From Pyrodictium abyssi (lineage in GTDB: Archaea > Thermoproteota > Thermoprotei_A > Sulfolobales > Pyrodictiaceae), in NCBI RefSeq assembly GCF_036323395.1, contig NZ_AP028907.1:1770001-1802000 (forward strand): 32,000 bases of DNA, given 5' to 3'. Positions 8,619 through 28,365 of this stretch are shown here, piece after piece. Under the pieces are notes generated by a model, which saw only the letters and a list, made by a program, of their open reading frames with translations, was not told the origin of the DNA and did no database searches. Numbering within the stretch: position 1 is the stretch's first letter; the number at the start of each line of letters is the position of its first letter. Position numbers and translations under genes: made by a program.

Positions 8619-8620
8619 TC

Positions 8621-13178: not shown

Positions 13179-13603
13179 GGGCCCCCGGGGGCGTGCCCTG
13201 CGTCGTGTACACCGGGTCCTCCTCGAGAGGCCCGGGCCTCGGGGCTGACAGCCCGGTTCCCCCGAGCCCCTGGGTGTAGCGCTGGCCGCCGGGGCGCTGC
13301 GCAGCGGCTGCCCTGGGCCTCTTCGACGTTGTGCTGGAGGCTGCGGGGGTGCCGGCGCTGTGTTGGTGTAGGCTCCTGTTGGGCTGCGGGTGTCCGCAGT
13401 TGTGCTGGGCGGTTACTGGATGCCCTGTTGCGGAGGGCTCGGGGGCCTGCTGCTCAACGGTGTTCCCGGGGGCTGTGCGCAGGTTCATGCCCGGGTACCT
13501 GGTGTATGGGGGTGAGGGCTCTGCATCGTCTCGGTCATGTAGTGTGGCTGTCTTGGTGCTGGACCTGGTCACGGAGCTTGGCAGGAGCTTGCTCCATGTA
13601 CAT

Positions 13604-14056
13604 CTATGTTTTCGCTTGATTAATCCTTGACAGTAGGGCGTTGTAGTCGCTTATATCATGGATGAAGTACGCTTCCACCCCGTATCTTCTTGCATTGCTG
13701 ACCATTACTCTGTCTGCGCTTACTAGTATAGCGGGGATGATGCTGGCAACCGCTATGTAGAACGCGTCTATAGCTCTACAACCCGTCGCCAGAGCGATGT
13801 CCACGAGCAGGTCATACTCTATTTCATCGATGACGATGACCTTGTTCATTATCTCGTCGTATAGCTTTTTGGCTATAGCTCTGGGTTTCCTCCGAGTCAG
13901 CTGCGAGGCAAGCTCTACACCAAACACCAGGGGCTCGATAATGTCGAGGCTATTCTCGTCGATAAGCCTGAATAGGTTGCGCGCCCTATTACTCCGCTCC
14001 TCATCGTATATGAAGAGGCGGTCGATGAAGACCGAGACATCAACCACTATGTTCAT
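13604..14056 (-). CDS. vapC: PIN-domain ribonuclease toxin VapC
   Basis: MNIVVDVSVFIDRL start, conserved E in IIEPLVFGVELA, C-terminal GCRAIDAFYIAVA ... SADR. It is a paralogue of 21778-22245 and noticeably less GC-rich than its flanks. Confidence 0.9.
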   Translation of the reverse strand: MNIVVDVSVFIDRLFIYDEERSNRARNLFRLIDENSLDIIEPLVFGVELASQLTRRKPRAIAKKLYDEIMNKVIVIDEIEYDLLVDIALATGCRAIDAFYIAVASIIPAILVSADRVMVSNARRYGVEAYFIHDISDYNALLSRINQAKT

Positions 14057-14064
14057 AAGCCTTG

Positions 14065-14229
14065 CTACCTCCTCTCTTCGAGGAACTCCTCTAGCACATC
14101 CTCCTCAACCCTCTCAGCGTACTTTTCGAGCACCTCGTCAATACCCTTGGATATGCCGGCCCCTTTGGACCCGAGTAGCTTTCCTACAGCGCCTCTGGGC
14201 ACGCGAAGCCTCACAACACCGCTAGCCAC
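14065..14229 (-). CDS. vapB: Small antitoxin (VapB-like), 54 aa, below the ORF-track cutoff
   Basis: Hand translation from the GTG at 14229 gives VASGVVRLRVPRGAVGKLLGSKGAGISKGIDEVLEKYAERVEEDVLEEFLEERR*. The stop lies 8 nt upstream of the vapC ATG. A degraded copy exists at 21130-21254. Confidence 0.6.
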   Translation of the reverse strand: MASGVVRLRVPRGAVGKLLGSKGAGISKGIDEVLEKYAERVEEDVLEEFLEERR

Positions 14230-15161
14230 GGGCCTCTACCACACGGTACTACTGCCTACTGAGCCTTCTTAACCCCCTCCCCCGGGGGCACCCTGAAGCC
14301 ACATGGCCAGATGACCGGGAGGAGTCGTAGCCCACAGCAGGGGTGGCAACGTTTTAAACCAGTCCCCAAGGACCTGGGGCAGCTAGCCCTATAGCCGTGT
14401 CCCCGTAATGCGGGTACCATGAGGGCGAGCCGCCCAGGATTAGGAGCCTCTGGGCCCGCCTGGCCCCCTGGGTGGCCACCCGGGAGGAGGCTGCCCGCGC
14501 GGGCCCTTCTACACGCCCGTCGAGCCCTACAAGCTCTTTACCCGCGGCCATGCACCCCTCTCTCACGAGGGCGCTCCTGTATGGGTTCTGGCTCTAGGCC
14601 TGGGGTTGCCCGGGAGCTCCTCGATGCTGCCCGGTGGATGCTCGAGTCTGGCCGGGTCGCGGCGGCTGCTGTGCTCGCGGCCGCCGCTCTCCTGGGCGGC
14701 CCGGCTGGCGCCGCTCTGGCCGCTCTCTCCGCCACAGCGCTGCTGGCTGGAGTAGACCTCGCGGTGCGCGGGGCGAGGGTCCACTAGATAGCCGGGGCCG
14801 GCGTCCCCTCTCCTTGTCCTCTCTGGGCTAGCCCGTCTAGCCCCGTGGCCTCCTTGGCGCTGCTGTCCCCGGGCAGCAGTGATGACGGCGGGACAAGGGG
14901 GGTGCCTCAATAGGGCTAGGAGCTGGAGCATTGCAAGGGCGGATATCCTGGCTCAACTAGCTAGGTATAGCCCGCATGTCCTGTAGTGTTTGATTGCCTT
15001 GTCTGGGTTAGGGGGCTTCTAGTGCTGCCTCCCGACGGTGTCCAGGGGAGAGTGTGTTCCAGTGTGCAGTGTATGCCTGGCTCCTAGGGTGCTGCAGGGC
15101 CGGTAGGAGGGGTATATGTGGGGCTCCCAGCTCCAGTGTACCCCTGGGGTGGCTCCGGGGG

Positions 15162-15482
15162 TTGGCTGTTGTGCGCGACAGGCGCACCATCGTGCTCGAC
15201 GAGGACGTGGCGGAGGAGCTGGGGCTAAGGCCCGGCGAGAGGCTAGAGGTGAGGAGAGAGGGGGATGTTATTGTGCTGCTGGAGGAGGGGGACTGGGTTG
15301 AGAAGCTTGTGAGAAGGTTTGAGGAGCGGTACGGGATGCCTACGGAGGAGTTCCTCGAGGCCTGGAGGCGCGGGGAGATACCGGAGCCCGAGGACCCGGA
15401 TCTACTCGCCGACTTTATGGAGTGGGAGGTGCTCGGGGAGCTGCGGCGGAGGAGGGGTGCGTGCCGGGGCTCCCGAGGATAA
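15162..15482 (+). CDS. AbrB/SpoVT-like putative antitoxin with a C-terminal acidic extension
   Basis: RRTIVLDEDVAEELGLRPGERLEVRREGDVIVLLE resembles a swapped-hairpin AbrB domain. It overlaps the downstream DUF6516-like gene by about 20 nt. The start is uncertain (TTG 15162, GTG 15171; the ORF track gives 15054). Confidence 0.55.
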   Translation: MAVVRDRRTIVLDEDVAEELGLRPGERLEVRREGDVIVLLEEGDWVEKLVRRFEERYGMPTEEFLEAWRRGEIPEPEDPDLLADFMEWEVLGELRRRRGACRGSRG

Positions 15483-15823
15483 GGCGCGTCGCCGCGCTCC
15501 TCCGGGGCCGTGGCTATAGTGTTAGCCTCGTGAGAGCTGTGAGCCGGCCCGGCTTCTTCTCGTACCGGCTGAGGGCCCGGCGGAGAGGGGTTCTCATCTA
15601 CGTGAGCGAGGTCTGGCTGCAGGGGAGGCTGGCTAGGTATGCGTACACCCTTGTGGTCGGCGGGAGGGCTGTCCTCCGCTACGACAACGCGCCCCACCAC
15701 CCCGGGCTATCTACGTATCCGCACCACGTGCACCGGGAGGGGAGAGTCGAGCCCCTCGAGAGACCCAGCCTCGAGGGGTTCCTGGAGGAGGCTGAGACGC
15801 TCCTCCGCCGGAGAGGACTCTAG
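15461..15823 (+). CDS. DUF6516 / TumE-like putative toxin
   Basis: The motif LRYDNAPHHPGLSTYPHHVH...PSLEGFLEEAE matches my memory of the DUF6516 (TumE family) signature YDNAPHH..PHHkH. GTG at 15461 preferred over the ORF-track start at 15422. Confidence 0.6.
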   Translation: MPGLPRIRRVAALLRGRGYSVSLVRAVSRPGFFSYRLRARRRGVLIYVSEVWLQGRLARYAYTLVVGGRAVLRYDNAPHHPGLSTYPHHVHREGRVEPLERPSLEGFLEEAETLLRRRGL

Positions 15824-15925
15824 CCCACCGGCGGCAAGCACACCCCGGACCCCGCCTCGTACGGTGTGAGTGTCGGGGTGCATCCCCTCTTAGGTATTCT
15901 AGGGCTCTGGGCCCCGGCATCCCGG

Positions 15926-16118
15926 CTATGTCGAGAGCGCTGACACGTCTAATGCCAGCCTCATGGCCTCATCCCTCCTCGCGGCCGGCCCTTATGGCCT
16001 CGACTATCTCCTCTACGGGTATCCTGCCCAGGATACTCTGGACCCTCGCCCTGGCCTGGGCGTTGTCCTTGGCGCCCCTGGGGCCTGGGGGAGGGGCTAT
16101 ACGCGGCCCTCCCTCCCC
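15926..16118 (-). pseudogene. Remnant of an RHH-VapB / VapC pair
   Basis: The minus strand reads ..RVQSILGRIPVEEIVEAIRAGREEG* (15969 end; no usable start codon upstream). Four nt later comes ATG-MRLALDVSALST* (15964-15926), a PIN-like N-terminus cut off after 12 codons. Confidence 0.35.
16097..16102 (+). promoter_or_regulatory. TATA-box-like element (CTATAC, in the shared TATACGCGGC motif)
   Basis: An AT-rich hexamer in GC-rich DNA, about 40 nt upstream of the GTG at 16140. The same 10-mer occurs upstream of 26114. Confidence 0.3.
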
Positions 16119-16139
16119 CTACTGTAGGGGTGTAGATGA

Positions 16140-16331
16140 GTGTCTAGGGTTGTTGAGGCTGTGTACGAGAAGGATGTGCTGCGGCCTCTAGAGGACCCCG
16201 GCCTAGAGGAGGGTGAGAGGGTTAGGCTGGTTATTGTTAGACGTGACCTCTCCAGGTACCGGGGTGTTCTGGGTAGGGCTAGCTACAGGGAGCTGAAGAG
16301 GCTGGAGGATGAGGCGCAGCTACAGCCTTGA
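16140..16331 (+). CDS. vapB: AF2212-like (DUF104) antitoxin
   Basis: VVEAVYEKDVLRPLEDPGLEEGERVRLVI is the classic DUF104/AF2212 pattern. The stop overlaps the TTG of the downstream PIN gene (TTGA). Confidence 0.8.
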   Translation: MSRVVEAVYEKDVLRPLEDPGLEEGERVRLVIVRRDLSRYRGVLGRASYRELKRLEDEAQLQP

Positions 16332-16786
16332 CTGCTGGCCCGGTCTTTATCGATACTAACGTTTTCTACAATGTGCTGTTTGAGACGGAGTATGCCGAGG
16401 AGTCTCAGCGCCTCCTCGAGACTGTGCCGAGGCCCGTGACGTCCTACACTGTGGTGAACGAGCTCGTACTCGTCGTGGCCAGGAAGGCTGTTGAGAGGGA
16501 GCCCGGCGTTAGAAGCTACTACGGGTTTAGAGAGGTTATAGCGGAGAAGGGCTACGGGCCCGTATAGCGCTACATCGAGGAGGCGCTGGGCCTACTGAGG
16601 GACGCTGGCGTAGAGATAGTAGACGACCACCGCGATGTGAACGGGTGGCTAGAGATAATGAAGGCCTACGGCCTGCTGCCGAACGACGCGCAGATAGCCC
16701 TGACATGCAGACACTACGGGATAGAGACCATAGCTACCTTCGACGAGGACTTCAAGAGGGTCCCATGGCTACAAGTGGTGCCATAG
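16328..16786 (+). pseudogene. vapC: PIN-domain VapC with an in-frame TAG at 16565-16567
   Basis: 16328-16564 encodes the PIN N-half (VFIDTNVFYNVL.., VVNELVLV). After the TAG the same frame continues for 72 codons to 16786 with the PIN C-half (LLPNDAQIALTCRHYGIETIATFDEDF). Confidence 0.75.
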
Positions 16787-17185
16787 AAGGGCCGTGTAGG
16801 CTCTCCAGGCCCACCTAGGAGGGCCAGCGCCTCCCCGGGCAGCACCTGTGCGCTCAGAGCGTGCCCCCGTGGCGGGGTATAGAGCTGACAGTGGTCCTAG
16901 CCCTCCCTTGGCACCACCGCTGTCGTCTCTCCTTGGTGCTCCGCCTCCTTTTCGTGTCGTCATGGGGCTGAGGAGGAGAGTAGGCTGCTGGAGGAGGTTA
17001 GGGGGCTCCGCGGGAAGGTGAACAGGACGCTGCCGGCGGCGCTGCGGCGGTTGGCCCCCGGGGCCTACTCGGTTATTGCTGGGAGGAGGCTGCCCCGCGC
17101 TGGGCGGGGAGGCTAGCGTGGACGTGGCGTGGTAGCCTGCATGGCCTGGTGGGGCCGGGCTGCCGGGGGTTCGGGCGGCCCCGGC

Positions 17186-17647
17186 CTAGCCGGGGGTGCT
17201 AGGGGTAGGCGGTCCCGGGGCCCGGGGCTTGTTCTGGGCGTGTCTCTGGAGGCCTCTTAGCTCGTCTTTGGCGCGGAGGAGGAGGCTCCAGCGGAGCCCT
17301 GGCCGCCGCGTGAAGAGGGGCTGGCCTTTGCTGAGCACTGCTGCGCGGAAGCCCGGTGGGGCGTAGTCGAGTAGCTTTACGTCCACCGGGGCGCCGGCGA
17401 GCTTGGAGAGGAGTAGGCTGAGCGTGTAGGTGTAGTATGGCTCGTCGTGGTAGCTTATCCTGCCTGCCGTGTAGACTGCTACGTCTATGTCCCGGAATAG
17501 CCTGTGGCGCGTGAACCCCCCGTATATTAGTGCTAGGAGTATCTCCCTGTGCCTGCTGAGCTCCGATGCTATCAGCCTGGCGGTCTCTAGCCTGGCTCTA
17601 GGGGGCATACTGCGTGGTAGCGGCTTCTCCTCTAGCAGCCTCTTCAA
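17186..17647 (-). CDS. mntA: Minimal nucleotidyltransferase (MNT) antitoxin
   Basis: LIYGGFTRHRLFRDIDVAVY matches the G[SG]x9-13DxD pol-beta NTase motif. It overlaps the upstream HEPN gene. The start may instead be the ATG at 17608. Confidence 0.85.
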   Translation of the reverse strand: MKRLLEEKPLPRSMPPRARLETARLIASELSRHREILLALIYGGFTRHRLFRDIDVAVYTAGRISYHDEPYYTYTLSLLLSKLAGAPVDVKLLDYAPPGFRAAVLSKGQPLFTRRPGLRWSLLLRAKDELRGLQRHAQNKPRAPGPPTPSTPG

Positions 17648-18095
17648 TGCACTCCTCCAGTCTGTGGAGGAACTCCTCTACGGCTTTTATGCCTCCCCTA
17701 GCTGCCTCGTTGAGGGCCCTCAGGTCGTCTATGAACCAGTAGCGGTGGATTATCGCGTTGCGTAGCGCTGCTAGCCTGGCCATCTCCTCGCCTACACGGG
17801 CGGGTATGACCCCCGCCTCGATGAGCCTCAGGAAGGACTCGCGGTAGGATGAGGGAGGCTGCTCGAACAGCTTCTCTAGAAGCGCTACCGCGGCGTCTAC
17901 AGAGGCCTCGACGAGGAGTATTATGGCGTAGCGGAGCGAGTATCTCAGCGTCTTGTCCCTGGCCACCTCCTCGGCCGGCAGCCCAGCTAGGAACCTTAGC
18001 TGGTCAAGCGCCTCCCGCGCGTCGGCTAGGTAGCGGCGTATCGCCTCCACCTCCTCCGGGGAAAGCCTAGACCCAAGGCTGCCGCACACACCCAT
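17598..18095 (-). CDS. hepT: HEPN-domain (DUF86) toxin
   Basis: LAALRNAIIHRYW matches the Rx4-6H HEPN RNase motif. ATG at 18095 (MGVCGS..). The 5' extension of the ORF-track entry (to 18440) is low-complexity and unlikely to be coding. Confidence 0.85.
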   Translation of the reverse strand: MGVCGSLGSRLSPEEVEAIRRYLADAREALDQLRFLAGLPAEEVARDKTLRYSLRYAIILLVEASVDAAVALLEKLFEQPPSSYRESFLRLIEAGVIPARVGEEMARLAALRNAIIHRYWFIDDLRALNEAARGGIKAVEEFLHRLEECIEEAARGEAATTQYAP

Positions 18096-18292
18096 AGTAC
18101 ACTCCTCCGGCTCCCCGTCGACCGGTGGACACGGGGCTCCATGCCGAGCCTGCCGAGGCCGGTAGCCCCCGCTCACACTACCCCCGGGAGCAGCGCCCCG
18201 AGGGGCGAGACGCATTCCCCTCCATAACGCTGCAGAATGAGACCCGCATATCCTGCTCGCCGACCCCGTGCTGCTAGCCACTCGGGCGTTCC

Positions 18293-18583
18293 GTGCCCCG
18301 ACACCATTATGGGGCTGCGCGCCAGGCCCCGGGAGCTCCGTCGCTGATAAAAGATCTAGCCGAGGAGAGGAAGAAGCTAGAGGATGAAATCGAGAAGCTC
18401 CGGGACGAGAAGAGGCTGGAAGAGAAGGTGAACGCGACACTGGCGGAGCTGGAGGAGCCCAGGGCCCGGCTCGACGGGCTGCGGGGCGCCGTGAACGCCA
18501 CTACTGCGTGCAGTGGGGGCTCCGGGCTGCCTGGCCTCCGTGGCTGTGGCGGCGGGGAGGCTGCCCCGCGCGGGCGGGGCTAG
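18293..18583 (+). CDS. Hypothetical small coiled-coil protein (doubtful)
   Basis: Charged heptad-like stretch KDLAEERKKLEDEIEKLRDEKRLEEKVNATLAELEE. A decayed paralogous copy without a start codon lies at about 16960-17116. No clear promoter or start. Confidence 0.25.
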   Translation: MPRHHYGAARQAPGAPSLIKDLAEERKKLEDEIEKLRDEKRLEEKVNATLAELEEPRARLDGLRGAVNATTACSGGSGLPGLRGCGGGEAAPRGRG

Positions 18584-19099
18584 AGGGTGTGGCCTCGGGG
18601 TGCCTGGTGCTGCCGGGGGCTGTAGGGCTTCATTCTCGCCTCCTGTGCTGCTTGGCTAGGAGCGCGTATGTACTGGTGGTATTCTTCCACCTTTTCCTCG
18701 GGGAAGGGTGTCTCCGCGTCCACCCCCTCTACTCTTGCCAGCTTCCTGTCCAGCGTGTATATCTTCTCCGCGTTGAGGCTCCGGGCTAGTGCTACAAGGT
18801 AGCCGTCCCACGACTCGATGCTGTAGGCTGCTGTGTCTAGGGCCTTTGCCGCTGGTGCGGCTTCTACGCTGGGGTAGAGCGCGGGTGAGCCCGTCTCAAG
18901 CATAGAGACTAGGACCTTCTTTACGGCGTGCCTCTGGACCCGGAGGTACCTCGTGGCTATGTGGTAGGCGCCGAGCACGGCTGTCACCGGTATTACCGCC
19001 CTCCGGCGGAGCGCTAGGACATCCTCCTAGGAACTCCACGGCGGGCCGGCGGAGCGGGTTCTCGAAGCACACGAGGACAACTATGCTGACGTCCACCAC
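18580..19099 (-). pseudogene. vapC: PIN-domain VapC disrupted by a frameshift near 19015-19040
   Basis: The N-terminus (VVDVSIVVLVCFENPLRRPAVEFL) is in the frame of ORF 18896-19138. The continuation (EDVLALRRRAVIPVTAVLGAYHIATRYL ... WDGYLVALARSLNAEKIYTLDRKL) is in the frame of ORF 18580-18987. Confidence 0.65.
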
Positions 19100-19103
19100 C
19101 CCC

Positions 19104-19452
19104 TCAACGTACCCCGAGCTTGCGCTCCGCGTACTCACGCCCCATCCACTCCCACTCCTCCTCTACCCGGCCGCCAGCCTCCTCGGTGAACGGCTCTAGA
19201 CGCTCAGCCAGAGCCCGCTCCCTCCACCACGCGGCCCGCTCCCCCAGGTCCCCGGCCCCCCGGGGGCACAAGCTCCACCCAGCCACCCCGGACCCGCAGG
19301 ACCAGCCGCCCACCGTTCTCTAGGCCTAGTAGCCGGCGCACCTCAGCCGGGAGGACTAGCCTCCCACGCCGGTCCACCCGGACCTCGTACTCCCCGGAGC
19401 AAGCCGCGGCACAGAGCCACCCCCGGGCGAATCCTCCAGAGAAGACCCTCAC
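19104..19452 (-). pseudogene. vapB: AbrB/SpoVT-type VapB antitoxin disrupted by a frameshift at the C6G5 run 19256-19266
   Basis: The AbrB domain YEVRVDRRGRLVLPAEVRRLLGLENGGRLVLRVRGGWVELVPP is in one frame. The plausible C-terminus (GDLGERAAWWRERALAERLEPFTEE..EYAERKLGVR*) is in another and ends 5 nt before the vapC GTG. Confidence 0.6.
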
Positions 19453-19575
19453 TAGGTATAACCTGGGGCCCCGCTATCGCTGTCTCCATCCCTTAGCGCT
19501 GCGGCCCTGTGCCGGGCGGCCCCGCCGGCGTGCCCCCGGGGGTTCTTGCCCCTTGTGGGCGCCCCCTGGCCGGGG

Positions 19576-19947
19576 CTAGCGGGGGTTCGCCCCGCGGGGC
19601 TGCTGGGCGAGGATGCAGGCCCATGTGGAGGGGCCGTCGAGGAGGATGCGTAGCCTGTTCAGCACCTCTCTCCCTACGAGGCGCTTGCCCCCGCCGTAGA
19701 GGGGCGTCTCGATGTAGACCTCGAGCCGCCGCCCCGCTACCTCGGCGACGGCGCGGGCCACTCTCATCGTGACGGTGTCTGCTAGCGTGCGGTAGGTCCT
19801 CCAGAGGCTCCGGGGCAGCTCGCCTATCATGAAGAACTCGTACTCGCCACGGGGCAGCATTATCGGGCCCTCGTACCCGGTGTCCACTTGGAGGGCTATC
19901 TCGCCGTACTCCTCCAGGGCCGCGTTGTAGAGGCGCAGACGGAGCAT
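19576..19947 (-). CDS. Retropepsin-like clan AA aspartic protease (AF_0612-like)
   Basis: MLRLRLYNAALEEYGEIALQVDTGYEGPIMLP has the catalytic D-T-G preceded by a hydrophobic beta strand. The C-terminal VGREVLNRLRILLDG is family-like. About 123 aa from the ATG at 19947; the ORF-track N-extension is Arg/Gly junk. Confidence 0.8.
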   Translation of the reverse strand: MLRLRLYNAALEEYGEIALQVDTGYEGPIMLPRGEYEFFMIGELPRSLWRTYRTLADTVTMRVARAVAEVAGRRLEVYIETPLYGGGKRLVGREVLNRLRILLDGPSTWACILAQQPRGANPR

Positions 19948-19988
19948 GGGGTAGGGGAGCCTCAGCCCCGGCGCGTAGCTCCAGCACT

Positions 19989-20375
19989 CTATGCCGGCTC
20001 CAGCGCCCCGCCCAGCCACTCGCCCCCTCCCCCGGCCTCGTCGTCCACACCCGGCCGCACCAGGACGGCCCTTCTCACCCCGCGACGGCGTAGCTCGCGC
20101 AGCGCCTCGGCGGCCTCCTCGAGGCTGGCGTAGACGCCTACTAGCCGGCCCCCGGCTATCACGACGTACATGCCGCGGGCCTCCCGGAGGAGCCGGGGCC
20201 GCAGCCGCTCCCACGCCTCATCGTCCACAGCCGAGTCCTCCACCACGGCGCCGCCGCGGAGCCAGAGCTCGATAGCCTCCTCCACGGCCTCGGAGGGCGA
20301 GAGGCCCCGGCGGGCAGCCTCGGCCTTAAGAAGCCTAACCTTCTCCGGAGATATCTTCTTCAGCACTAGAGGCAA
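19989..20375 (-). CDS. Ribbon-helix-helix DNA-binding domain fused to a DUF5678-like domain
   Basis: The N-terminus KISPEKVRLLKAEAARRGLSPSEAVEEAIELWL is RHH-like. The C-terminus MYVVIAGGRLVGVYASLEEAAEALRELRRRGVRRAVLVRPG resembles DUF5678. It lies immediately upstream of the aspartic protease gene. Confidence 0.65.
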   Translation of the reverse strand: MPLVLKKISPEKVRLLKAEAARRGLSPSEAVEEAIELWLRGGAVVEDSAVDDEAWERLRPRLLREARGMYVVIAGGRLVGVYASLEEAAEALRELRRRGVRRAVLVRPGVDDEAGGGGEWLGGALEPA

Positions 20376-20479
20376 CCCAGTCGCCCCGGGTACACCAGTA
20401 CACCCAGAACAGCGCTTTCAACCTATCCCCTGGCAGAGCCGAGCCCCAGGAGCGGCCCGGAGCGTAGGGCTATGCTTAT

Positions 20480-20517
20480 CCCTCTCTGCCCGCTCTACAG
20501 CCACGGGGCAGAGAGGG
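20480..20517. other. 12-bp stem / 14-nt loop hairpin (CCCTCTCTGCCC ... GGGCAGAGAGGG)
   Basis: Perfect inverted repeat read directly, in the ORF-poor stretch between 20375 and 20762. Confidence 0.5.
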
Positions 20518-20761
20518 CCCCCGGAGTGCCTCTGGTGGCCCGCCCCCTGGGAGCTGGAGGCCGGAGCCCGAGAAGGCCCGGATTACTCGCCGCCTAGCCC
20601 CCTGACCTCGCCTCCGAAGAGGCCTCGAGGAGCCTGCTCCTGGAGGCGCTGCTACGCGAAGCAGCCACACGGGAGGACGTGGAGAAGCTCGAGGAGAAGA
20701 TAGAGCAGAGGATGCACCGGATAGAAGAGAGGCTCGTAGACCGGAGAAAGAGCCGAGGGAG

Positions 20762-21067: not shown

Positions 21068-21129
21068 CCCCGCCGCCCCGGCGGCTACAGCTCCCGTGCC
21101 CTGAGGGCCGTAGCTGCCAGCGCAGCCTA

Positions 21130-21254
21130 CTCAACCCTCTCAGCGTACTTTTCGGGCACCTCAGCAATACCCTTGGATATGCCGGCCCCCTGGACTCGAG
21201 TAGCTTTCCTACAGCGCCTCTGGGTACGCGAAGCCTCACAACACCGCTAGCCAC
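21130..21254 (-). pseudogene. Degraded duplicate of the vapB gene at 14065-14229
   Basis: About 144 bp (21130-21273) aligns with 14104-14247 at roughly 90 percent identity by eye. Translation starts identically (MASGVVRLRVPRGAVGKLL), then an indel shifts the frame. No PIN gene follows. Confidence 0.65.
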
Positions 21255-21262
21255 GAGCCCTC

Positions 21263-21352
21263 TACCACACGGTGCTGGTCGCCCCGGACTGGGCCCTGCA
21301 CGCCGAAGAGTAGAGGACCCGGCGGCCCCGCCGGCGTGCCCTGCCCCGGGGG
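21263..21352 (+). repeat. Copy of the ATP-grasp gene 3' end plus downstream sequence (compare 13133-13200)
   Basis: It translates LVAPDWALHAEE*, versus LVASDWALHAEQQQ* at the end of 12063-13178. It is followed by the shared GGCGTGCCCTGC motif and is fused directly to the vapB-fragment upstream region. Confidence 0.65.
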
Positions 21353-21383
21353 CGGGGTTTGGCGTGTAGTAGGCCCGGCCAAC

Positions 21384-21427
21384 AGGGACCCCCGGGGACG
21401 GGTACGGGGGAAGCGGAGCAGGGCTGG
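21384..21427 (+). repeat. Direct repeat R1, copy 1 (AGGGACCCCCGGGGACGGGTACGGGGGAAGCGGAGCAGGGCTGG)
   Basis: It matches 22349-22391 with one indel and one mismatch. The two copies bracket the vapBC cassette at 21509-22245. Confidence 0.85.
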
Positions 21428-21508: not shown

Positions 21509-21781
21509 TTGATGGGTGAGCGTGGGAGGGAGCGGGTGCTGGCTCTCTGGAGGGGTCTTCCGTTGGCTGGGGAGGCCGTGGTTGAGGCGGTCTACGAGAG
21601 GGGTGTGCTACGGCTCCTTCGGCCCCTGGACTTGCCGGATGGGGCGCGTGTCGTTGTGAGGATAGTGGAGGCGGGTAGGCCGCCGCGTGGCCTGCTGGAG
21701 GTCCTCGACGAGATTGCGCGGGAGTACCGGGGCCGGGCGCGGGAGGATCCTCTCGAGGCGTTCCTCAGGGAGAGAAGATGA
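21509..21781 (+). CDS. vapB: AF2212-like (DUF104) antitoxin
   Basis: VVEAVYERGVLRLLRPLDLPDGARVVVRIVE. The stop overlaps the vapC ATG (ATGA). The real start may be TTG 21563 or GTG 21578. Confidence 0.8.
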   Translation: MMGERGRERVLALWRGLPLAGEAVVEAVYERGVLRLLRPLDLPDGARVVVRIVEAGRPPRGLLEVLDEIAREYRGRAREDPLEAFLRERR

Positions 21782-22245
21782 TAGTGCTGGATACGTCTAT
21801 CCTAGTGGACGCCGTTATACCGTTTGACGAGCACCGGCGGAGCATAGTTAGGAGGGTGCTCCGGGCGGTAGAGGAGGCCGGGGCGGTTGTCTACGAGCCC
21901 CGTCTCGTCCTGGTAGAGCTGGCGGGCGTCCTGGCCCGGTACCAGCCGCCGGATAAGGTGCGTAGCCATGTTGAGAGGATAGCAGAGAAGCTGGTGATAA
22001 TAGACTACGGCGTACTGCATGATACGGCTTACCGGGTGGCCCTGGAAACGGGGTGTAGGGCTGCAGACGCGTTCTTCATAGCGGCCGCGCTGCACACGGG
22101 CTCGCTTCTAGCCACAAACGACAGGATCCAGGCGGCAAACGCGGCTAGAATGGGTGTCGAGGCCTACTATGTGCTGCAGCAGCACCAGCAGCTCATAGAG
22201 CGGTTAAGGGATGCCAAAGAACCCCTAGACACAATGGATCAGTAA
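21778..22245 (+). CDS. vapC: PIN-domain toxin VapC
   Basis: MIVLDTSILVDAV, YEPRLVLVELAGVL, GCRAADAFFIAAALHTGSLLATNDRI. All PIN acidic positions are present. Confidence 0.92.
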   Translation: MIVLDTSILVDAVIPFDEHRRSIVRRVLRAVEEAGAVVYEPRLVLVELAGVLARYQPPDKVRSHVERIAEKLVIIDYGVLHDTAYRVALETGCRAADAFFIAAALHTGSLLATNDRIQAANAARMGVEAYYVLQQHQQLIERLRDAKEPLDTMDQ

Positions 22246-22348
22246 AATGGGGGAAGAGACTGGATTAGTTAGGCAACTGCTAGCCGGCCGACTACGTGGA
22301 GCCAGGGCCCCAACGTCTTCGATGGCTAGAGGTGCCAGCCAGGCCGAT

Positions 22349-22391
22349 AGGGACCCCGGGGACGGGTACGGGGGAAGCGGAGCCGGGCTGG
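22349..22391 (+). repeat. Direct repeat R1, copy 2
   Basis: See 21384-21427. It is immediately followed by the GCCCCCGGGGGC palindrome. Confidence 0.85.
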
Positions 22392-22513: not shown

Positions 22514-22936
22514 CTACTCTTGTACGATTTTTATGCCTGGTAGGTTTTTGAAGTGTTTGTCGAAGGTGTAGACCTCTTCTACGCCGTGTTCCATCATCTT
22601 GATGTAGGCTAGGGCGTCGTTTAGGCTGACCGTGTAGCGGCTTGCTGTGGCTAGCGCCTTCTCGTAGTCCTCCTCCGTGACGCCTGCCACCCTTATATTC
22701 TCTAGCGAGAGTATCCGTGCCGCTACTCTGAGGCTTGTCTGGAGGCCTAGCCTCGCCTCCACGATGTTTGCTATCTCGGCTACGTGGATGACGGTTGTCA
22801 GCACCTCTTCGGAGCCCGCGTCTATGCGCTCTATTATGCTCTTGGCCCGCTCCTTTACCTGGGCTTCTCGCTGGCTTAGCCTTCTCCTCGGGGCGAGGTA
22901 GGCGTGGAGGAAAACGCTCGAGTCGAGGAACCTCAC
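22514..22936 (-). CDS. vapC: PIN-domain toxin VapC
   Basis: MRFLDSSVFLHAYL, VIHVAEIANIVE, SLNDALAYIKMMEHGVEEVYTFDKHF. The GTG start overlaps the vapB stop by 1 nt. Confidence 0.9.
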   Translation of the reverse strand: MRFLDSSVFLHAYLAPRRRLSQREAQVKERAKSIIERIDAGSEEVLTTVIHVAEIANIVEARLGLQTSLRVAARILSLENIRVAGVTEEDYEKALATASRYTVSLNDALAYIKMMEHGVEEVYTFDKHFKNLPGIKIVQE

Positions 22937-23172
22937 TACCGCTGCCCCTCCCTGGCTAGGGCTCTGCGCAGCTCGTGGGTGTCGGTGAAGTCCTCCACAT
23001 CGTCCACGACTATGGAGTCGAAGAGGCTTGTAAGGCTGACCGGTTCTACGGGCCGGAGCACTATCCTATCCTCCTCGGCCTCCACAATGAATAGCCTTGT
23101 CTTCAGCTTTCTCCGGATACCAGCGGGTATCAGTATCCTTCCCTGCTTATCCATCCTAGCCAGGAGACCCAT
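22936..23172 (-). CDS. vapB: AbrB/SpoVT-type antitoxin VapB
   Basis: ARMDKQGRILIPAGIRRKLKTRLFIVEAEEDRIVLRPV is a canonical AbrB-type swapped hairpin. Confidence 0.9.
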   Translation of the reverse strand: MGLLARMDKQGRILIPAGIRRKLKTRLFIVEAEEDRIVLRPVEPVSLTSLFDSIVVDDVEDFTDTHELRRALAREGQR

Positions 23173-23435
23173 ACCCCCACCAGCCCTATAGAAGCGCTAC
23201 CACCGGCTTAATAGTGCTTCCAGGCTCTCGGTGCTATACCGGCTCCTGGAAGCCCTCCAGGACCACCGTGACCCGGCACTACAGTGCTCCATGCGGGGGC
23301 TGAACCCCTGGAGGGGCAGGAGGAACACCCCTAGTACTACCACCCAGCAACGCCACATACAAGCATGCAAAGAACACATCTCCACCGGGCCTGCACGGCT
23401 ACCAGGCCACCTGCACACTACAGCCCTAAAGGCCA

Positions 23436-23463
23436 CCAAGGCCTGCTGCGCAGCAGGCCTTGG
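23436..23463. repeat. Perfect 28-bp palindrome CCAAGGCCTGCTGCGCAGCAGGCCTTGG
   Basis: Read directly: 13-bp arms with a 2-nt centre. It lies in the roughly 580-bp ORF-poor spacer 23173-23754. Confidence 0.8.
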
Positions 23464-23754
23464 CGGCTGGAGGCTGCGCCTAGGTGCACAGCCGGAACCG
23501 CAAGAGAGATTTAAGGCGCTCCTCTCCGCGGGCTCCTTGGCCGCTGTAAGAGGATCTAGCTAGCCGGGGAGGGGGAGAAGGGCTGGAAGAGGCAGGGGCT
23601 CCGGGGGACCCGGGGCTGCGGCTGCCGGGGCTGGGTGGTGCTTGGACGCGGGTTCTAGAGCCTTGCGGCGCGCATCGAGCTGCTTTTTGATGCCGCTGTT
23701 TGGTGGTAAGTGTGGCTAGCGCCGGGTCCGGCCTCCTGTCTCTCTGGGACTGCT

Positions 23755-23936
23755 CTCGGGTCCTCCGCTACCCCGGGCACCCTGTGCTCGCTGCGGCGTA
23801 GCCCGGGGCGTGTCCGGGTGGTGTGAGCCCTGGGTATCCGGAGTGTTGCAGCCCTGGTTTGCGTGTGCGACGCTTTCTACCGGGTGCCCCGCGCCGGCGA
23901 CCCCGGCTTCATCGACGCTGTGCTGGAGATCGCGGG
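23755..23936 (+). pseudogene. Fragment duplicating the 5' part of the ATP-grasp gene (compare 12098-12283)
   Basis: 23865-23936 matches 12212-12283 with a single mismatch. The upstream 110 nt is more diverged, with two short deletions. In frame it reads ..VV*ALGIRSVAALVCVCDAFYRVPRAGDPGFIDAVLEIAG, with TGA replacing the Cys codon. Homology ends abruptly before the vapC stop at 23978. Confidence 0.8.
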
Positions 23937-23977: not shown

Positions 23978-24385
23978 CTACGCGCCCTGTAGCTCTTTTA
24001 GCAGCTGCTCGACGCTGATGGACTCGGGGAATCTCTGTAGGTCGCTGTCCTCTGTGACTAGCTTCATCCGGTGTGCCCGCGCCGCGTATAGGTAGGATGC
24101 GTCGTAGAACGTGAGGCTCTCGCTCGTGGCGAGCTCTGCTATCTCGGGCAGCCTGTCCCGGAGGCTTATCACCTGCATGCCGCCGAGGACCTCCTGGAAG
24201 AGCCTGGCCACCACCAGGAGGTCCCTGATCCTGCCTCTCCGGTGCTCCTTCCAGATGACGTTCCCGACCTCGTAGACTGTCAGGTCTAGGGCTGCGAAGA
24301 GATGGGTGTAGGCTAGCAGGGTTTCCCGGAGCCGGAGTACTAGCGGGTATAGGGCCGAGGCGTCGAGGAGATACCTGCCCGCCAC
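23978..24385 (-). CDS. vapC: PIN-domain toxin VapC
   Basis: RYLLDASALYPLV, LDLTVYEVGNVIWKE, SLTFYDASYLYAARAHRMKLVTEDSDL. The GTG at 24385 just after the vapB stop is preferred; the ORF-track start is 24433. Confidence 0.85.
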   Translation of the reverse strand: MAGRYLLDASALYPLVLRLRETLLAYTHLFAALDLTVYEVGNVIWKEHRRGRIRDLLVVARLFQEVLGGMQVISLRDRLPEIAELATSESLTFYDASYLYAARAHRMKLVTEDSDLQRFPESISVEQLLKELQGA

Positions 24386-24393
24386 AGCCGCGG

Positions 24394-24618
24394 CTACCTC
24401 TCCTTCCTCGTCTCCCGGACCGCCTGCACCCACTCCTCCACCGTGAGGTCCATGGCGTCTAGCGCCTCGTCTATGAGCCTCCGGAGCCGGTGCATCCGGG
24501 CCCGCCGGATCTCCTCCTCCAGCGCCTTCTCCACGACAGCCCGGAGGTCTATGCCCAGCCTCTCAGCTTCCTCCTTGAGCTCGCGCCGGACCCGGACAGA
24601 TAGGACAACCGTAGACAC
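24394..24618 (-). CDS. vapB: Ribbon-helix-helix (CopG-like) antitoxin VapB
   Basis: VVLSVRVRRELKEEAERLGIDLRAVVEKALEEEI fits a beta strand plus two helices. GTG start at 24618. Confidence 0.85.
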   Translation of the reverse strand: MSTVVLSVRVRRELKEEAERLGIDLRAVVEKALEEEIRRARMHRLRRLIDEALDAMDLTVEEWVQAVRETRKER

Positions 24619-24810: not shown

Positions 24811-24981
24811 TGGCCCCCGGGCTTGCCGGATGGGGCGCGTGTCGTTGTGAGGATAGTGGAGGCGGGTAGGCCGCCGCGTGGCCTGCTGGAGGTCCTCGAC
24901 GAGATCGCGCAGGGGTACCGGGGCCGGGCGCGGGAGGGATCCTCTCGAGGCGTTCCTCAGGGAGAGAAGATGATAGTGCTG
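24811..24981 (+). pseudogene. Truncated duplicate of the AF2212-type antitoxin 3' part plus the first codons of vapC (compare 21618-21790)
   Basis: About 160 nt are nearly identical to 21631-21790 (3 mismatches and a 1-nt insertion, GGGAGGGATCC). The copy includes the ATGATAGTGCTGG junction and then diverges. Confidence 0.82.
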
Positions 24982-25132
24982 GGATGGATTGTCTCTATGC
25001 CCGCTGGGCGCTGAGAGATGGCGGAGAACGTGGAGAAGCTCTTAGCCGAGATAAGGGGAGCATCTGTGGCCAGGCGGGGCGGGCAGAGCATCGCATAGCG
25101 ATGGCTCCTCATGCTCCTACCGGATAACATAG

Positions 25133-25586
25133 CTAGCGCGTATGCGGGCCGTGGCCTCCCATGGAGGCTGGTTCTAGGGCGTCCACGGTGGCGGTTTTCA
25201 CGCCAGCTCTGCTGGCTTTTTCTCTCAGCTCTCTGTCCTGGGTGACCAGGGTTAGGCCGTGCTTCCGGGCCATGTACGCGTAGGCGGCGTCGTAGAATGT
25301 TAGCCCGGTTTCTAGTGCTAGCCTGGCTACGCCCTGGTAGTCGCCGGTGCCTCTCACGCTGAGTACATGCATCGAGCTGAGTATGGCTACTAGCTTCTCG
25401 GCCTTCTCTAGGGCCTCCTCCACGCCCGTGTCTCCGAGCAGGCGTGCCTCCTTCCAGACGACGCTGCCGAGCCCGGTGGTACGCGAGGTCGAGTGTGTAG
25501 GATTCACGCAGGACCGGGACCACCGCGTCGCCGTATCTGCGTAGGGCGACCGCTATAGCGCTGGAGTCCAGCAGGTAGCCGGCCAC
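25133..25586 (-). pseudogene. vapC: PIN-domain VapC disrupted by a frameshift near 25465-25485
   Basis: The N part (AGYLLDSSAIAVALRRYGDAVVPVLRESYTLDLAYH) is in one frame. The rest (GLGSVVWKEARLLGD ... GLTFYDAAYAYMARKHGLTLVTQDREL) is in another. It is a close paralogue of 23978-24385. Confidence 0.7.
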
Positions 25587-25824
25587 GGGGCACCCGCCGT
25601 GCTCTCCTCTGCTCCTTCACCAGCCTGGCTATCTCGTCCTCTGGGAGCCTGCTGAAGAACTCCTGTAGCTCCCGGGCAGCGGCCCGTAGCTCCTCCTCCC
25701 TCTTCTCCAGCTCCTCTTCGAGGGCTCGGCGCAGAACCTCGCCGACGTCTATATTGTACCTCTTCAGCTCCTCGTAGAGCTCTCTCCTAACCCTGGCGGA
25801 GACAGTGACGTAGCCACTAGTCAA
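25504..25824 (-). CDS. vapB: Ribbon-helix-helix antitoxin VapB (the C-terminal tail may be aberrant)
   Basis: YVTVSARVRRELYEELKRYNIDVGEVLRRALEEELEKR. A paralogue of 24394-24618, but the ORF runs about 80 nt into the vapC start instead of stopping before it. Confidence 0.72.
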   Translation of the reverse strand: MTSGYVTVSARVRRELYEELKRYNIDVGEVLRRALEEELEKREEELRAAARELQEFFSRLPEDEIARLVKEQRRARRVPRGRLPAGLQRYSGRPTQIRRRGGPGPA

Positions 25825-25873: not shown

Positions 25874-26073
25874 GACAAGCGCAGCAGAGGAACCCACCGC
25901 CTCCATGGATACGACATCTCCAACAGGCTCCCGCTTCTCGGGCCCCTGGGTCCTTAGGCCTGCCGGAGGGGCTCGCATCGTTCTGAAAATATCTCGTGGC
26001 TGGTGCGCTGCTCTATCCCCGCCGGGGCCCTCTATCCCGGAGAGCCGCCCTCCGAGGAGTATCCAGGACAAGT

Positions 26074-26080
26074 CTTATAC
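26074..26080 (+). promoter_or_regulatory. TATA-box-like element (CTTATAC, in the shared TATACGCGGC motif)
   Basis: 34-40 nt upstream of the ATG at 26114. The 10-mer is identical to the one at 16098-16107. Confidence 0.3.
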
Positions 26081-26113
26081 GCGGCAGGGGCGTATGTGCG
26101 TGTTGGTGTGTGC

Positions 26114-26404
26114 ATGTCGGTGAACATTACTGTCCGTATACCGCGTAGGCTCGCAGAGGAGATGAAGAAGCACCGGGAGATAAACTGGAGCGAGGTAGTG
26201 AGACGCAGCATCGAGGAGTACCTCCGGCGCCTAGACGAGGCTAGGCGCCTCGAGACGCCCGGCGAGCTGCTCGAGGAGCTACGCAGGCTAGGCGTAGGCC
26301 CAGAGGACCTCGAGCCCCTACCACCCGGCGCCGAGGAGGAGTACTACGGGAGGATGGTGGCCGAGGAGTGGAGGAGGGTAAGATCTACGACACAAGCGCA
26401 GTGA
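26114..26404 (+). CDS. vapB: RHH/VapB-type antitoxin
   Basis: MSVNITVRIPRRLAEEMKKHREINWSEVVRRSIEEYL. ATG at 26114; the ORF-track start at 26003 is unlikely. Confidence 0.8.
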   Translation: MSVNITVRIPRRLAEEMKKHREINWSEVVRRSIEEYLRRLDEARRLETPGELLEELRRLGVGPEDLEPLPPGAEEEYYGRMVAEEWRRVRSTTQAQ

Positions 26405-26709
26405 TAGAGCTGGTGGCGCGGAGACGGGCCCCGCTAGTACCAGGCTACATATCCGTGCTGACAGCGGTAGAGTACCCGCCGGCCGTGCCCCGCGTACTAG
26501 GGATACTGTACCCCACGAAGCAGGACTACCGGCTCGCAGTAGCATGGCAGGCCAAGCTCCGCAGGCTCGGCGCGCCGATGCCGGCAGTAGACCTCGTCAT
26601 AGCCGCCCAGGCGTACAACAACGGCATGGAGCTAGTAGCGCTCGATAAGCACTTCCAGCTCCTAAAGGAGAAGATAGCGCCAGACCTCAAGCTGGTAGAG
26701 GAGCTATAG
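26368..26709 (+). CDS. vapC: Short PIN-domain toxin VapC
   Basis: KIYDTSAVIEL, VLTAVEY, AVDLVIAAQAYNNGMELVALDKHF. It overlaps the antitoxin gene. Confidence 0.8.
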   Translation: MEEGKIYDTSAVIELVARRRAPLVPGYISVLTAVEYPPAVPRVLGILYPTKQDYRLAVAWQAKLRRLGAPMPAVDLVIAAQAYNNGMELVALDKHFQLLKEKIAPDLKLVEEL

Positions 26710-26779: not shown

Positions 26780-27364
26780 CTACGGGCCCAGGACGCGTCT
26801 AAGCGCCTCTAGGAGCCGGGGCTCCTCGGCGCTGTTCTCTAGGTGTAGGAACCTGACTCCAAGCCTGCTGCACGCCTCGGCGTAGGCGGGGTTGTCGTCT
26901 ACGAGTAGCAGCTCGCCCGGCGGGGCCCCGGTCCCGGCTAGTATCATGCGCAGCATCTCCTCCTTGCTGGGGTGGTCGTCGCGGGTGACTAGGCCGCGGA
27001 AGTAGCCCAGCAGGCCGTGCCTCCGTAGGAACGGCTCCACGACGGCCCGGGGCTGGAGGGTCGCCAGGTACACCTCTAGGCCGTGGCCGCGGGCTAGCTG
27101 GAGCGCTGGCTCCACGTCGGGGAAGGGGGCCGCCCTCTCCGCGGCTTCGCGCTCGAAGCGCTCGAGCACACGGCTGGCGAGAGCGTACTCCCCGGTGCCC
27201 CATAGGCTGGCCAGGAGCCGGGTCAGGCTAGCCACGGGGCGCCCGAGGACCCGGGACACCTCCCGGCGGGCCCGCTGCCAGTCCACCGGCAGCCTCGTGA
27301 CCACCCCATCGAAGTCGAGTACCAGGACCGAGACCCTACCCCGGCGGCTGCTCATCCCCCTCAT
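26780..27364 (-). CDS. HAD-superfamily hydrolase/phosphatase
   Basis: Motif I VLVLDFDGVV, motif II-like LATLQ and motif IV LLVDDNP. 194 aa. Confidence 0.85.
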   Translation of the reverse strand: MRGMSSRRGRVSVLVLDFDGVVTRLPVDWQRARREVSRVLGRPVASLTRLLASLWGTGEYALASRVLERFEREAAERAAPFPDVEPALQLARGHGLEVYLATLQPRAVVEPFLRRHGLLGYFRGLVTRDDHPSKEEMLRMILAGTGAPPGELLLVDDNPAYAEACSRLGVRFLHLENSAEEPRLLEALRRVLGP

Positions 27365-27437
27365 CCTGCCGGGGAGCAGCGATGACCACCTACTTCCGGC
27401 TTACGGTCCCAGCGGGGCGCTGCAAGCCCCCGGGGGG

Positions 27438-27899
27438 CTAGCCGTGTTTCCTGACGAACTCCTCCTCGTGGATTATGCTGGTTGTGTCTTCTCCCACCGC
27501 TTCTAGGAAGTCTAGGAGCCTCATGTCTCTCGTCAGGAAGCTTAGCCTCCGTGTCTTCGACGTCGTGTAGAGGAGGAGGTCTATAAGGTCTTTGAACCCT
27601 TTCCTGCGCAGTTCTAGCGCCTTCAGGTACCCTGCTGCCGTGGGCTGGGTTGCCCTAAACGCCTCCCTGATAGACTTTAGCCCAAGCATCACCCTTCTCC
27701 TGTCATAGTCTATTCTCGAGAGCTTGCCCATTATCTCGAATACGTTGAACTGTGTGTAGTAGATCTCGGCTCTCCCTAGCCTGTATAGCTTCTCTAGCAC
27801 GGTTAGTGCCTCCTCCACCCCCTCTACATCGACCCCCACTACCGGCAGCAGGTACGTCGTGTCTAGTAGTATTCTAATCCTGTTCTCCGAGGAGTTCAC
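27438..27899 (-). CDS. vapC: PIN-domain protein (VapC-like)
   Basis: IRILLDTTYLLPVVG, QFNVFEIMGKL, LSFLTRDMRL. It overlaps the upstream AbrB gene. Confidence 0.8.
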   Translation of the reverse strand: MNSSENRIRILLDTTYLLPVVGVDVEGVEEALTVLEKLYRLGRAEIYYTQFNVFEIMGKLSRIDYDRRRVMLGLKSIREAFRATQPTAAGYLKALELRRKGFKDLIDLLLYTTSKTRRLSFLTRDMRLLDFLEAVGEDTTSIIHEEEFVRKHG

Positions 27900-28128
27900 C
27901 CTGCATCTCCTCTGACTCCTTCTCGAACTCCTCGAAGCTTGTCTTGGCGAACTTAGGGTACCTCAGCGCCAGCTCGAAGGGGTCGGGCACTACCTCTATG
28001 ACCACCTTGTTGTCCTTTACTCTCAGCTTTACAACAGTACCCTCCTTTATGCCGACGGCCTCAGCTATACTCTTGGGTATGTAGAGCATGTTCTTCCGGC
28101 CTACACGGGTCCTAGCAACCAGGCCCAA
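27874..28128 (-). CDS. vapB: AbrB/SpoVT-type antitoxin VapB
   Basis: VGRKNMLYIPKSIAEAVGIKEGTVVKLRVKDNKVVIEVVP. Confidence 0.9.
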   Translation of the reverse strand: MGLVARTRVGRKNMLYIPKSIAEAVGIKEGTVVKLRVKDNKVVIEVVPDPFELALRYPKFAKTSFEEFEKESEEMQGELLGEQD

Positions 28129-28164
28129 GCACGCCCGCCAGGATGATACACATACTCCTAGACG

Positions 28165-28171
28165 GTAAAAA
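28165..28171 (-). promoter_or_regulatory. TATA-box-like element TTTTTAC
   Basis: 37-43 nt upstream of the TTG start at 28128, the same spacing as in the other TA operons here. Confidence 0.3.
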
Positions 28172-28365
28172 CACTCCCAGACAAAGGGGCCTCGTCCAGG
28201 CCCGAAAAGAGCCGGCTGGCCTGGGGAGAGACAGCCGGGTCCGAGTACTCCGCGGGGCCATAGGGACCGGGAGAGGGCAAGCCGCCGGGAGGAACGGCTA
28301 TGCTGTATGTGGTAGGCTCCTCGGTCTACGCTAGCATGCTACAAGCGGAAGGGATGACTGGTCTA

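Follow-up and report, generated by a model that had tools for sequence, protein, structure and literature searches.

Gene content of the array

We analyzed a 32,000-nucleotide (nt) stretch of the Pyrodictium abyssi chromosome (RefSeq assembly GCF_036323395.1, contig NZ_AP028907.1, positions 1,770,001 to 1,802,000 of the forward strand), here called the window, with its first letter as position 1. Inside a cell-surface sugar cluster the window carries a ~15-kb array (15.2 kb) of twelve toxin-antitoxin (TA) pairs with decayed remains. The array is bordered on the left by an ATP-grasp gene, whose open reading frame (ORF) is open back to 12012 with the ATG at 12063 as its likely start, and on the right by a DegT aminotransferase gene. 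About 50 candidate ORFs from the 11–30 kb region were scanned against Pfam and also NCBIfam profiles, and ten proteins were compared with PADLOC. The genes and cassettes are as follows (coordinates, strand, description; aa, amino acids; GC, guanine-cytosine content).

12063–13178 (+), ATP-grasp gene (PylC-like_N and ATPgrasp_Ter by Pfam), left border; 93% aa identical to P0001 (356 aa) in the related locus L002
13179–13603, spacer 3′ of the ATP-grasp gene; 89% nt conserved in L002, no family match
13604–14229 (−), cassette 1: 54-aa unclassified antitoxin (14065–14229) and intact PIN (13604–14056); GC 51%
15054–15823 (+), cassette 2: AbrB-like ORF (15054–15482; weak MazE_antitoxin match, E = 6e-4) and TumE/DUF6516 toxin (15422–15823)
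16140–16786 (+), cassette 3: AF2212-like antitoxin (16140–16331) and PIN (16328–16786) broken by an in-frame TAG at 16565–16567
17186–18098 (−), cassette 4: HepT/HEPN RNase (~17598–18098) upstream of MNT nucleotidyltransferase (17186–17647)
18580–19452 (−), cassette 5: decayed AbrB-PIN pair, AbrB at 19204–19452 and PIN at 18580–18987
19576–20375 (−), cassette 6: RHH protein (19989–20375) and clan AA aspartic-protease-like protein with a DTG motif (19576 to ~19992); 90% nt identical to a P. delaneyi pair
20762–21067 (+), orphan DUF2283 gene; Pfam E = 1e-11
21509–22245 (+), cassette 8: AF2212-like antitoxin (21509–21781) and intact PIN (21778–22245), 4-nt overlap
22514–23172 (−), cassette 9: AbrB antitoxin (22936–23172) and intact PIN (22514–22936); GC 56%
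23978–24618 (−), cassette 10: RHH antitoxin (24394–24618, CcdA model) and intact PIN (23978–24433; 23978–24397 with a GTGA overlap)
25133–25824 (−), cassette 11: RHH antitoxin (25504–25824, CcdA model) and frameshifted PIN (25133–25507)
26003–26709 (+), cassette 12: RHH antitoxin (26003–26404, PSK_trans_fac/RHH_12) and short PIN-like toxin (26368–26709); 86% nt identical to a P. delaneyi pair
26780–27364 (−), HAD hydrolase, conserved sugar-locus member; Pfam E = 9e-11; adjoins ATP-grasp in the related locus L001 and DegT in L003
27438–28128 (−), cassette 13: AbrB antitoxin (27874–28128) and intact PIN (27438–27899); GC 53.5%
28366–29499 (−), DegT/DnrJ/EryC1 aminotransferase, right border; Pfam E = 6e-142

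An earlier reading of the same DNA (the original prediction) had counted nine PIN/VapC genes, each behind a small antitoxin of a named type. PF01850 was indeed found at nine places: 13604–14056 (−), 16328–16786 (+, in two ORFs), 18580–18987 (−), 21778–22245 (+), 22514–22936 (−), 23978–24433 (−), 25133–25507 (−), 26368–26709 (+) and 27438–27899 (−). Seven of these score above the Pfam PIN cut-off of 23.6 bits, the split gene 16328/16637 being counted once. A small ORF lies 5′ of all nine, overlapping the toxin gene or at most 8 nt away, and eight of the nine ORFs match AbrB/MazE, RHH-type or AF2212 models. The model matches, some below cut-off, agree with the predicted antitoxin types (three AbrB, three RHH, two AF2212 and one unclassified), and the profile scans retained most of the PIN and antitoxin calls. 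Where antitoxin and toxin genes overlap, with the antitoxin upstream, the overlaps measure 1 to 37 nt.

Alignment of the PIN proteins revealed two nearly invariant Asp columns, and no copy with an N-terminus lacks the N-terminal Asp (PIN 25133 lost its N-terminus to a frameshift). Five copies (13604, 21778, 22514, 23978, and 27438) look complete, apparently with the conserved acidic residues. PIN 26368, a short variant without the central Glu region, matches a P. delaneyi protein of equal length at 91% aa identity. Its antitoxin (26003–26404) matches PSK_trans_fac, and the P. delaneyi homologue of that antitoxin matches RHH_12. PINs 13604 and 21778 are 36% aa identical, and over its C-terminal tail the unclassified 14065–14229 ORF shares 43% identity with the 21509 antitoxin tail. 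PINs 23978 and 25133 (cassettes 10 and 11) share 38.6% aa identity, with antitoxins 48–56% aa identical over ~31–34 residues. The cassette pairs 13604/21778 and 23978/25133 are old paralogues.

A PIN profile derived from the array gave eight matches within 13.2–28.4 kb and none in the remaining 16.8 kb of the window, and a single match in ~170 kb of related loci. PIN genes cluster here far above chance, in a comparison that is rough since the profile is biased towards the window's own PINs.

Three further pairs have no PIN toxin. The toxin of cassette 2 matches PF20126 (TumE, formerly DUF6516) with E = 1.5e-15 and 57 bits vs. a cut-off of 23.4, which upholds the predicted AbrB-DUF6516 pair with a weak AbrB-like ORF upstream. 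TumE-TumA is an experimentally validated, translation-targeting TA family (PMC10584680). The predicted HEPN/MNT pair was likewise recovered in cassette 4 (HepT-like, E = 1e-17; Pol-beta nucleotidyltransferase, E = 9.6e-9, or ~1e-8), and the motifs RNAIIH and YGGF...DIDVAV are readable in the translations. Cassette 4 contains the HEPN Rx4-6H motif and an adjoining MNT with the G[GS]...DxD motif, as HepT-MntA (type VII) requires. The HepT gene lies 5′ of the MNT gene and overlaps it by ~50 nt. The usual HEPN/MNT order is MNT first, opposite to that of cassette 4.

The third non-PIN pair, cassette 6, had been described as an RHH-DUF5678 protein with a protease. The pair itself stands, with a borderline RHH_1 match as the sole assignment of the first protein. 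DUF5678 was rejected, giving no match even at E ≤ 1. The only family match of the protease-like protein is TIGR03698 (clan AA aspartic protease; E = 4.8e-8, 33.3 bits vs. a cut-off of 57.35), and Pfam protease models did not match it. The orphan DUF2283 gene was found as predicted.

The HAD hydrolase, taken in the original prediction for the only non-TA gene of the array, is a HAD gene but is a conserved part of the sugar locus and not a stray gene within the array. The TA genes therefore occupy two insertion sites and not one block: ATP-grasp and HAD are separated by 13.6 kb, HAD and DegT by 1.0 kb. The inventory also agrees with the prediction that nearly every gene is half of a TA-like pair, except that three PIN genes are broken and 34% of the array is unassigned GC-rich DNA.

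The locus in related genomes

The locus differs in each relative with which it was compared. In L001, a Pyrodictiaceae metagenome-assembled genome (ATP-grasp 67% aa identical), genes for DegT, a GFO/IDH/MocA oxidoreductase, ATP-grasp and HAD (−) lie within 4 kb with no TA gene among them; ATP-grasp and HAD are convergent and overlapping, and DegT and the oxidoreductase are just upstream. L001 represents the empty state of the locus. Homology with L002 (ATP-grasp 93% aa, 89% nt) extends from 14 nt before the ATP-grasp start (12049) to window position 13652. Beyond that point L002 contains rearranged pieces of cassette 1, two ORFs without assignment and a different RHH_12-PIN pair. The L002 ATP-grasp gene is frameshifted near codon 312 (L002 4036–4038, corresponding to about window 12950), and the called product stops early at 356 aa.

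On the right side, L003 (DegT 95% aa, both flanks 92% nt identical) has DegT adjoining HAD, without the AbrB-PIN pair 27438–28128, which is thus a single-cassette indel relative to L003. H. butylicus and L006 have no TA gene within 10 kb of DegT. H. butylicus does carry, ~70 kb away, an 84+153-aa AbrB-PIN unit as in cassette 13 (76% aa), beside another RHH-PIN pair. Because the pair is an indel vs. L003 and the same unit occurs elsewhere in H. butylicus, the event was probably a cassette gain.

P. delaneyi (L004; DegT 87% aa, 83% nt) has just two pairs in common with the array, RHH-protease (90% nt) and RHH_12-PIN (86% nt). The two shared pairs lie 1.5 kb apart and 4–7 kb from DegT, beside sulfate-activation genes. 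Array content thus varies or is missing in L001, L002, L003, and P. delaneyi; the array is accessory, with a content that turns over on the time scale separating Pyrodictium species. These empty and intermediate states support the earlier proposal that the array grew by insertion or expansion within a nucleotide-sugar locus.

The RHH-protease pair has a wider distribution. A metagenome scan with the protease-like protein found the pair kept as a unit in seven loci (L008–L014), in addition to P. delaneyi (L004 17304–18110), and its neighbors differ from those in the window even at 83–97% nt identity. In L014 four glycosyltransferase genes directly follow the pair, in L010 a DegT homologue is 1.5 kb away, and the P. 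delaneyi pair is near TauE, a methyltransferase and a GT4 gene. The RHH and DTG proteins are thus conserved as a unit in many Desulfurococcales-like contigs, repeatedly by glycosyltransferase or DegT genes, and may be a TA type that has escaped recognition or a companion of glycan loci.

Part of the cluster might serve the glycan locus instead of being selfish, with the RHH and protease-like pair as a conserved regulator or processing module of surface-glycan genes. Its persistence as a unit in the seven metagenomic loci and P. delaneyi, next to glycosyltransferases, DegT or GT4, speaks for such a role. The sample is small, however, and was gathered with the pair itself as query; comparison of L013 and L014 with the window shows that close relatives have other neighbors on either side, as would be the case for a mobile cassette, and the protease match is under the family cut-off. 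We consider this role rather unlikely.

The left flank (window 1–11999) is a glycan cluster of 39% GC (30–35% over 6–10 kb) with a 55% GC patch at an NTP-transferase gene (2362–3117). Genes in these 12 kb encode an FkbM-type methyltransferase, a GT2 fragment, a GFO/IDH/MocA oxidoreductase, a UDP-sugar dehydrogenase, three GT4 proteins and a flippase-like membrane protein. The low-GC block meets 65–70% GC DNA within ~60 nt of the ATP-grasp start (~12000), and homology with L002 starts at 12049. At the position of the left block both L002 and L001 carry a different, high-GC oxidoreductase. Half of the glycan locus, these left 12 kb, seems to have been replaced by horizontal transfer.

The jump from 39% to 65–70% GC at ~12000 is abrupt and could raise the suspicion of an assembly artefact or chimera. 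The switch falls outside the array, however; PIN 27438–27899 is 100% identical to a Pyrodictium abyssi protein, and the independent assemblies L002 and L003 are collinear with the two array borders at 89–92% nt identity. A chimeric assembly, which we consider extremely improbable, was rejected on this collinearity and protein identity.

Right of DegT, a gene on the minus strand (29512–30300) encodes a protein with a coiled coil, DUF3782 and a PDDEXK_10 nuclease fold. It lies between DegT and a conserved 129-aa gene and is missing in the closest relative L003; PADLOC model C3a181 aligns to its full length (E = 1e-17). A small TA cluster of P. delaneyi includes a 63-aa PDDEXK_10 fragment.

Relics, decayed cassettes and the search for mobility genes

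Three of the nine PIN cassettes are disrupted, one by an in-frame TAG (cassette 3) and two by frameshifts (cassettes 5 and 11). In cassette 5 the AbrB domain, antitoxin tail, PIN N-terminus and PIN body are spread over three frames, requiring at least 3 frameshifts. Genes or relics account for 66% of the 15.2 kb, and the other 34% consists of GC-rich pieces of 0.16–0.94 kb. When all 14 unassigned stretches were scanned with Pfam in six frames, no match reached E ≤ 0.05 and no integrase, transposase, replication or virion gene emerged; a known AF2212 fragment at 24812–24982 went undetected in that scan too. The longest stretches (14230–15169, 18099–18579, and 23173–23748; 0.5–0.9 kb, 65–70% GC) have long ORFs on both strands with no family match in any frame, and may be fully eroded cassettes or small genes outside known families. 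The ORF 18293–18583 encodes a short coiled-coil-like peptide.

Self-comparison of the window confirmed that the gene fragments noted earlier are real and identified four relics and partial cassette copies.

21119–21273 (−), 92% nt copy of the 5′ part of the cassette-1 antitoxin gene and its upstream region (matches 14093–14247)
21273–21344 (+), last ~45 nt of ATP-grasp and ~25 nt downstream (matches 13132–13201, ~80%); 72 nt
23749–23936 (+), 5′ part of ATP-grasp (matches 12093–12283); 188 nt, 85% overall with indels, last 73 nt 99% identical
24812–24982 (+), 96% nt copy of the end of the cassette-8 antitoxin gene and the first PIN codons (matches 21621–21790)

The ATP-grasp 3′ relic directly abuts the cassette-1 antitoxin copy, and the 5′ relic ends abruptly 41 nt before the next PIN gene. 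The two ATP-grasp relics record at least two events in which copies of the border gene took part. Cassette 8 is flanked on both sides by a 55-nt direct repeat (21372–21427 and 22337–22391, 91%). A weaker third copy of this repeat occurs at 27402–27442, beside the AbrB-PIN indel (cassette 13).

The 72-nt direct repeat (13132–13201 and 21273–21344) brackets 8.1 kb. One could read this left segment (13132–21344) as a decayed integrated element that entered in Campbell fashion at the ATP-grasp 3′ end, with cassettes 1–7 as its cargo. The repeat (~80%) brackets the segment as attL and attR would, and next to the inner side of the right copy is the 92% copy of the region upstream of the cassette-1 antitoxin, joined tail to head as from a circular intermediate or a tandem duplication. 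Tandem duplication could yield the same picture; the repeat and its tail-to-head junction would be the expected residue of either Campbell-type integration or such a duplication. An integrated element is nevertheless unlikely. The ORFs and all frames of the unassigned DNA yielded no integrase, transposase, replication or virion gene, and the GC content is host-like. The first 1.1 kb of this presumed cargo also occurs, rearranged, in L002 and must therefore be older than the separation of the two lineages. The 5′ ATP-grasp relic (23749–23936) lies outside the segment and would need a separate event.

A search for repeats and self-BLAST for a motif recurring at cassette borders returned pairwise duplications only. 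The window contains no tRNA gene as a target site, no Rfam match at the gathering threshold, and no CRISPR or other tandem repeat array of note. Neither the Pfam-scanned ORFs nor the unassigned DNA yielded an integrase or transposase. The borders of the AbrB-PIN indel relative to L003, read by eye, have no target-site duplication; the GC-rich palindrome in its spacer is present in both the window and L003 and is uninformative.

Chromosomal integrons such as the Vibrio superintegrons are long arrays of small, promoter-poor cassettes in which TA pairs are thought to stabilise the array. The P. abyssi array differs from them in having no integrase, no attC-like border repeat, and cassettes facing both ways. 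We rejected an integron cassette array on these grounds: the missing integrase, the lack of a repeat family at the borders, and cassettes on both strands.

Interpretation and comparison with known islands

The array is most probably an accessory island, a sink of selfish, deletion-resistant TA cassettes at two intergenic sites of a recombination-prone glycan locus. This reading builds on what was observed at the locus, namely its gene content, the presence or absence of the cassettes in relatives, the internal duplications, the ATP-grasp relics and the disrupted genes. In each cassette a small, DNA-binding antitoxin of the AbrB, RHH or AF2212 type would be made from a gene just upstream of, and mostly overlapping, the toxin gene. 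By family, the toxins would be PIN/VapC ribonucleases, a HepT ribonuclease with its MNT partner, TumE, and an aspartic-protease-like protein. The antitoxin would neutralise the toxin and repress the operon, and loss of the pair would free the more stable toxin, so that intact cassettes would resist deletion. The glycan locus is a likely recombination hot spot, judging from its variable content among relatives and the 11.7-kb low-GC glycosyltransferase block that abuts the array. We infer the dynamics of such a hot spot and sink as follows: cassettes would enter by recombination and be hard to lose while active, and decay by nonsense and frameshift mutations would turn them into the GC-rich spacer that makes up a third of the array.

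Several points weigh against this reading. Two PINs fall below the Pfam cut-off (18580, 19.0 bits; 26368, 22.9 bits), as do most of the antitoxin matches when held against Pfam curated cut-offs: three of AbrB/MazE type (15054 and 22936 among them), RHH_1 and PSK_trans_fac. No recombinase or boundary motif accounts for cassette entry. The GC content of the array (64%) equals that of its flanks and is lower only in cassettes 1, 9, and 13 (51–56%), so most cassettes are not recent imports from a compositionally different donor. The two cassettes shared with P. delaneyi (86–90% nt) are about as conserved as DegT (83% nt). Given this conservation and the recurrence of the RHH-protease pair by glycan genes, a portion of the cluster is old, perhaps with a function for the host. 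The frameshifts in the array could in principle be sequencing errors. Toxicity, addiction and autoregulation are predictions from what is established for the VapBC, HepT-MntA and TumE-TumA families.

The locus had been likened to a defence or addiction island. Addiction fits the cassettes well; for defence we found no specific support. Under a defence reading, PIN, HepT and TumE would act as abortive-infection effectors beside surface-glycan genes used as viral receptors. TumE matches the PADLOC candidate model PDC-M44B (E = 1.8e-10), and the DUF3782/PD-(D/E)XK gene that matches C3a181 is itself an indel vs. L003. A growing number of TA modules are found to act in phage defence (PMC10440598, PMC3506569). 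Against this, PADLOC placed none of the ten proteins in an established defence system, and the window has no CRISPR or other tandem repeat array and no Rfam match. Restriction-modification families did not turn up in the Pfam scans of ORFs or unassigned DNA. A third of the PIN genes are broken, which is unexpected under strong defensive selection. Anti-virus defence is an improbable explanation of the array. Defence islands as described by Makarova and colleagues (background in PMC3506569) resemble it in the clustering of TA and HEPN/PIN nuclease genes in variable regions; unlike in them, no CRISPR-Cas or other established defence system was found beside it.

Clustering of TA genes in variable regions and islands is well known. 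The closest archaeal parallel is a variable region of Sulfolobus islandicus that is enriched in both glycosyltransferase and TA genes (PMC3718332). Like the P. abyssi array, the hyperplastic region of strain LAL14/1 is strain-specific, with vapBC and HEPN-NT pairs next to glycosyltransferases and mixed vapB/vapC combinations. The S. islandicus vapBC genes are spread over a large region flanked by degenerate insertion sequence (IS) copies (PMC3718332), whereas twelve pairs are packed into 15 kb here. No remains of IS, miniature inverted-repeat transposable elements or CRISPR are present in the P. abyssi array, where the scars are the ATP-grasp relics. Genomic islands harbor 37% of the TA systems of Mycobacterium tuberculosis, and these systems may guard the neighboring DNA against deletion (PMC2781298). 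Those islands share with the present array a lineage-specific, VapBC-dominated expansion with several pairs per island, and stabilisation of adjacent DNA has been proposed for them. They differ in belonging to a bacterium, in holding at most a few pairs each, and in that toxicity was tested (PMC2781298).

The array is no new kind of system; it is a very dense but ordinary example of a known accessory "addiction" island. It is distinguished by packing twelve pairs and relics into 15 kb, by showing no IS or integrase traces, and by containing relics of a flanking gene. The last of these allows a more speculative and, in our view, quite improbable reading, in which the array grows by recombinase-independent capture anchored in the ATP-grasp gene. 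Circular or linear DNA carrying a piece of this gene would recombine with it, leaving a partial copy and new cargo. The TA block would then hold the hypervariable glycan locus in place, its left half having been swapped for the 30–45% GC glycosyltransferase cluster. If capture of this kind does operate, TA arrays would serve as inherent stabilisers of the loci where hyperthermophilic archaea switch glycans.

As an accessory TA island in a hyperthermophilic archaeon, the locus preserves in compact form the arrival, duplication, recombination and decay of cassettes. Its intact pairs are interspersed with broken ones, with partial copies and with relics of the flanking gene, and the empty and intermediate states are seen in relatives. 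The locus offers a ready set of thermostable candidate VapBC, HepT/MNT and TumE pairs for tests, and adds a further case of the recurring link between surface-glycan and TA genes in Crenarchaeota.

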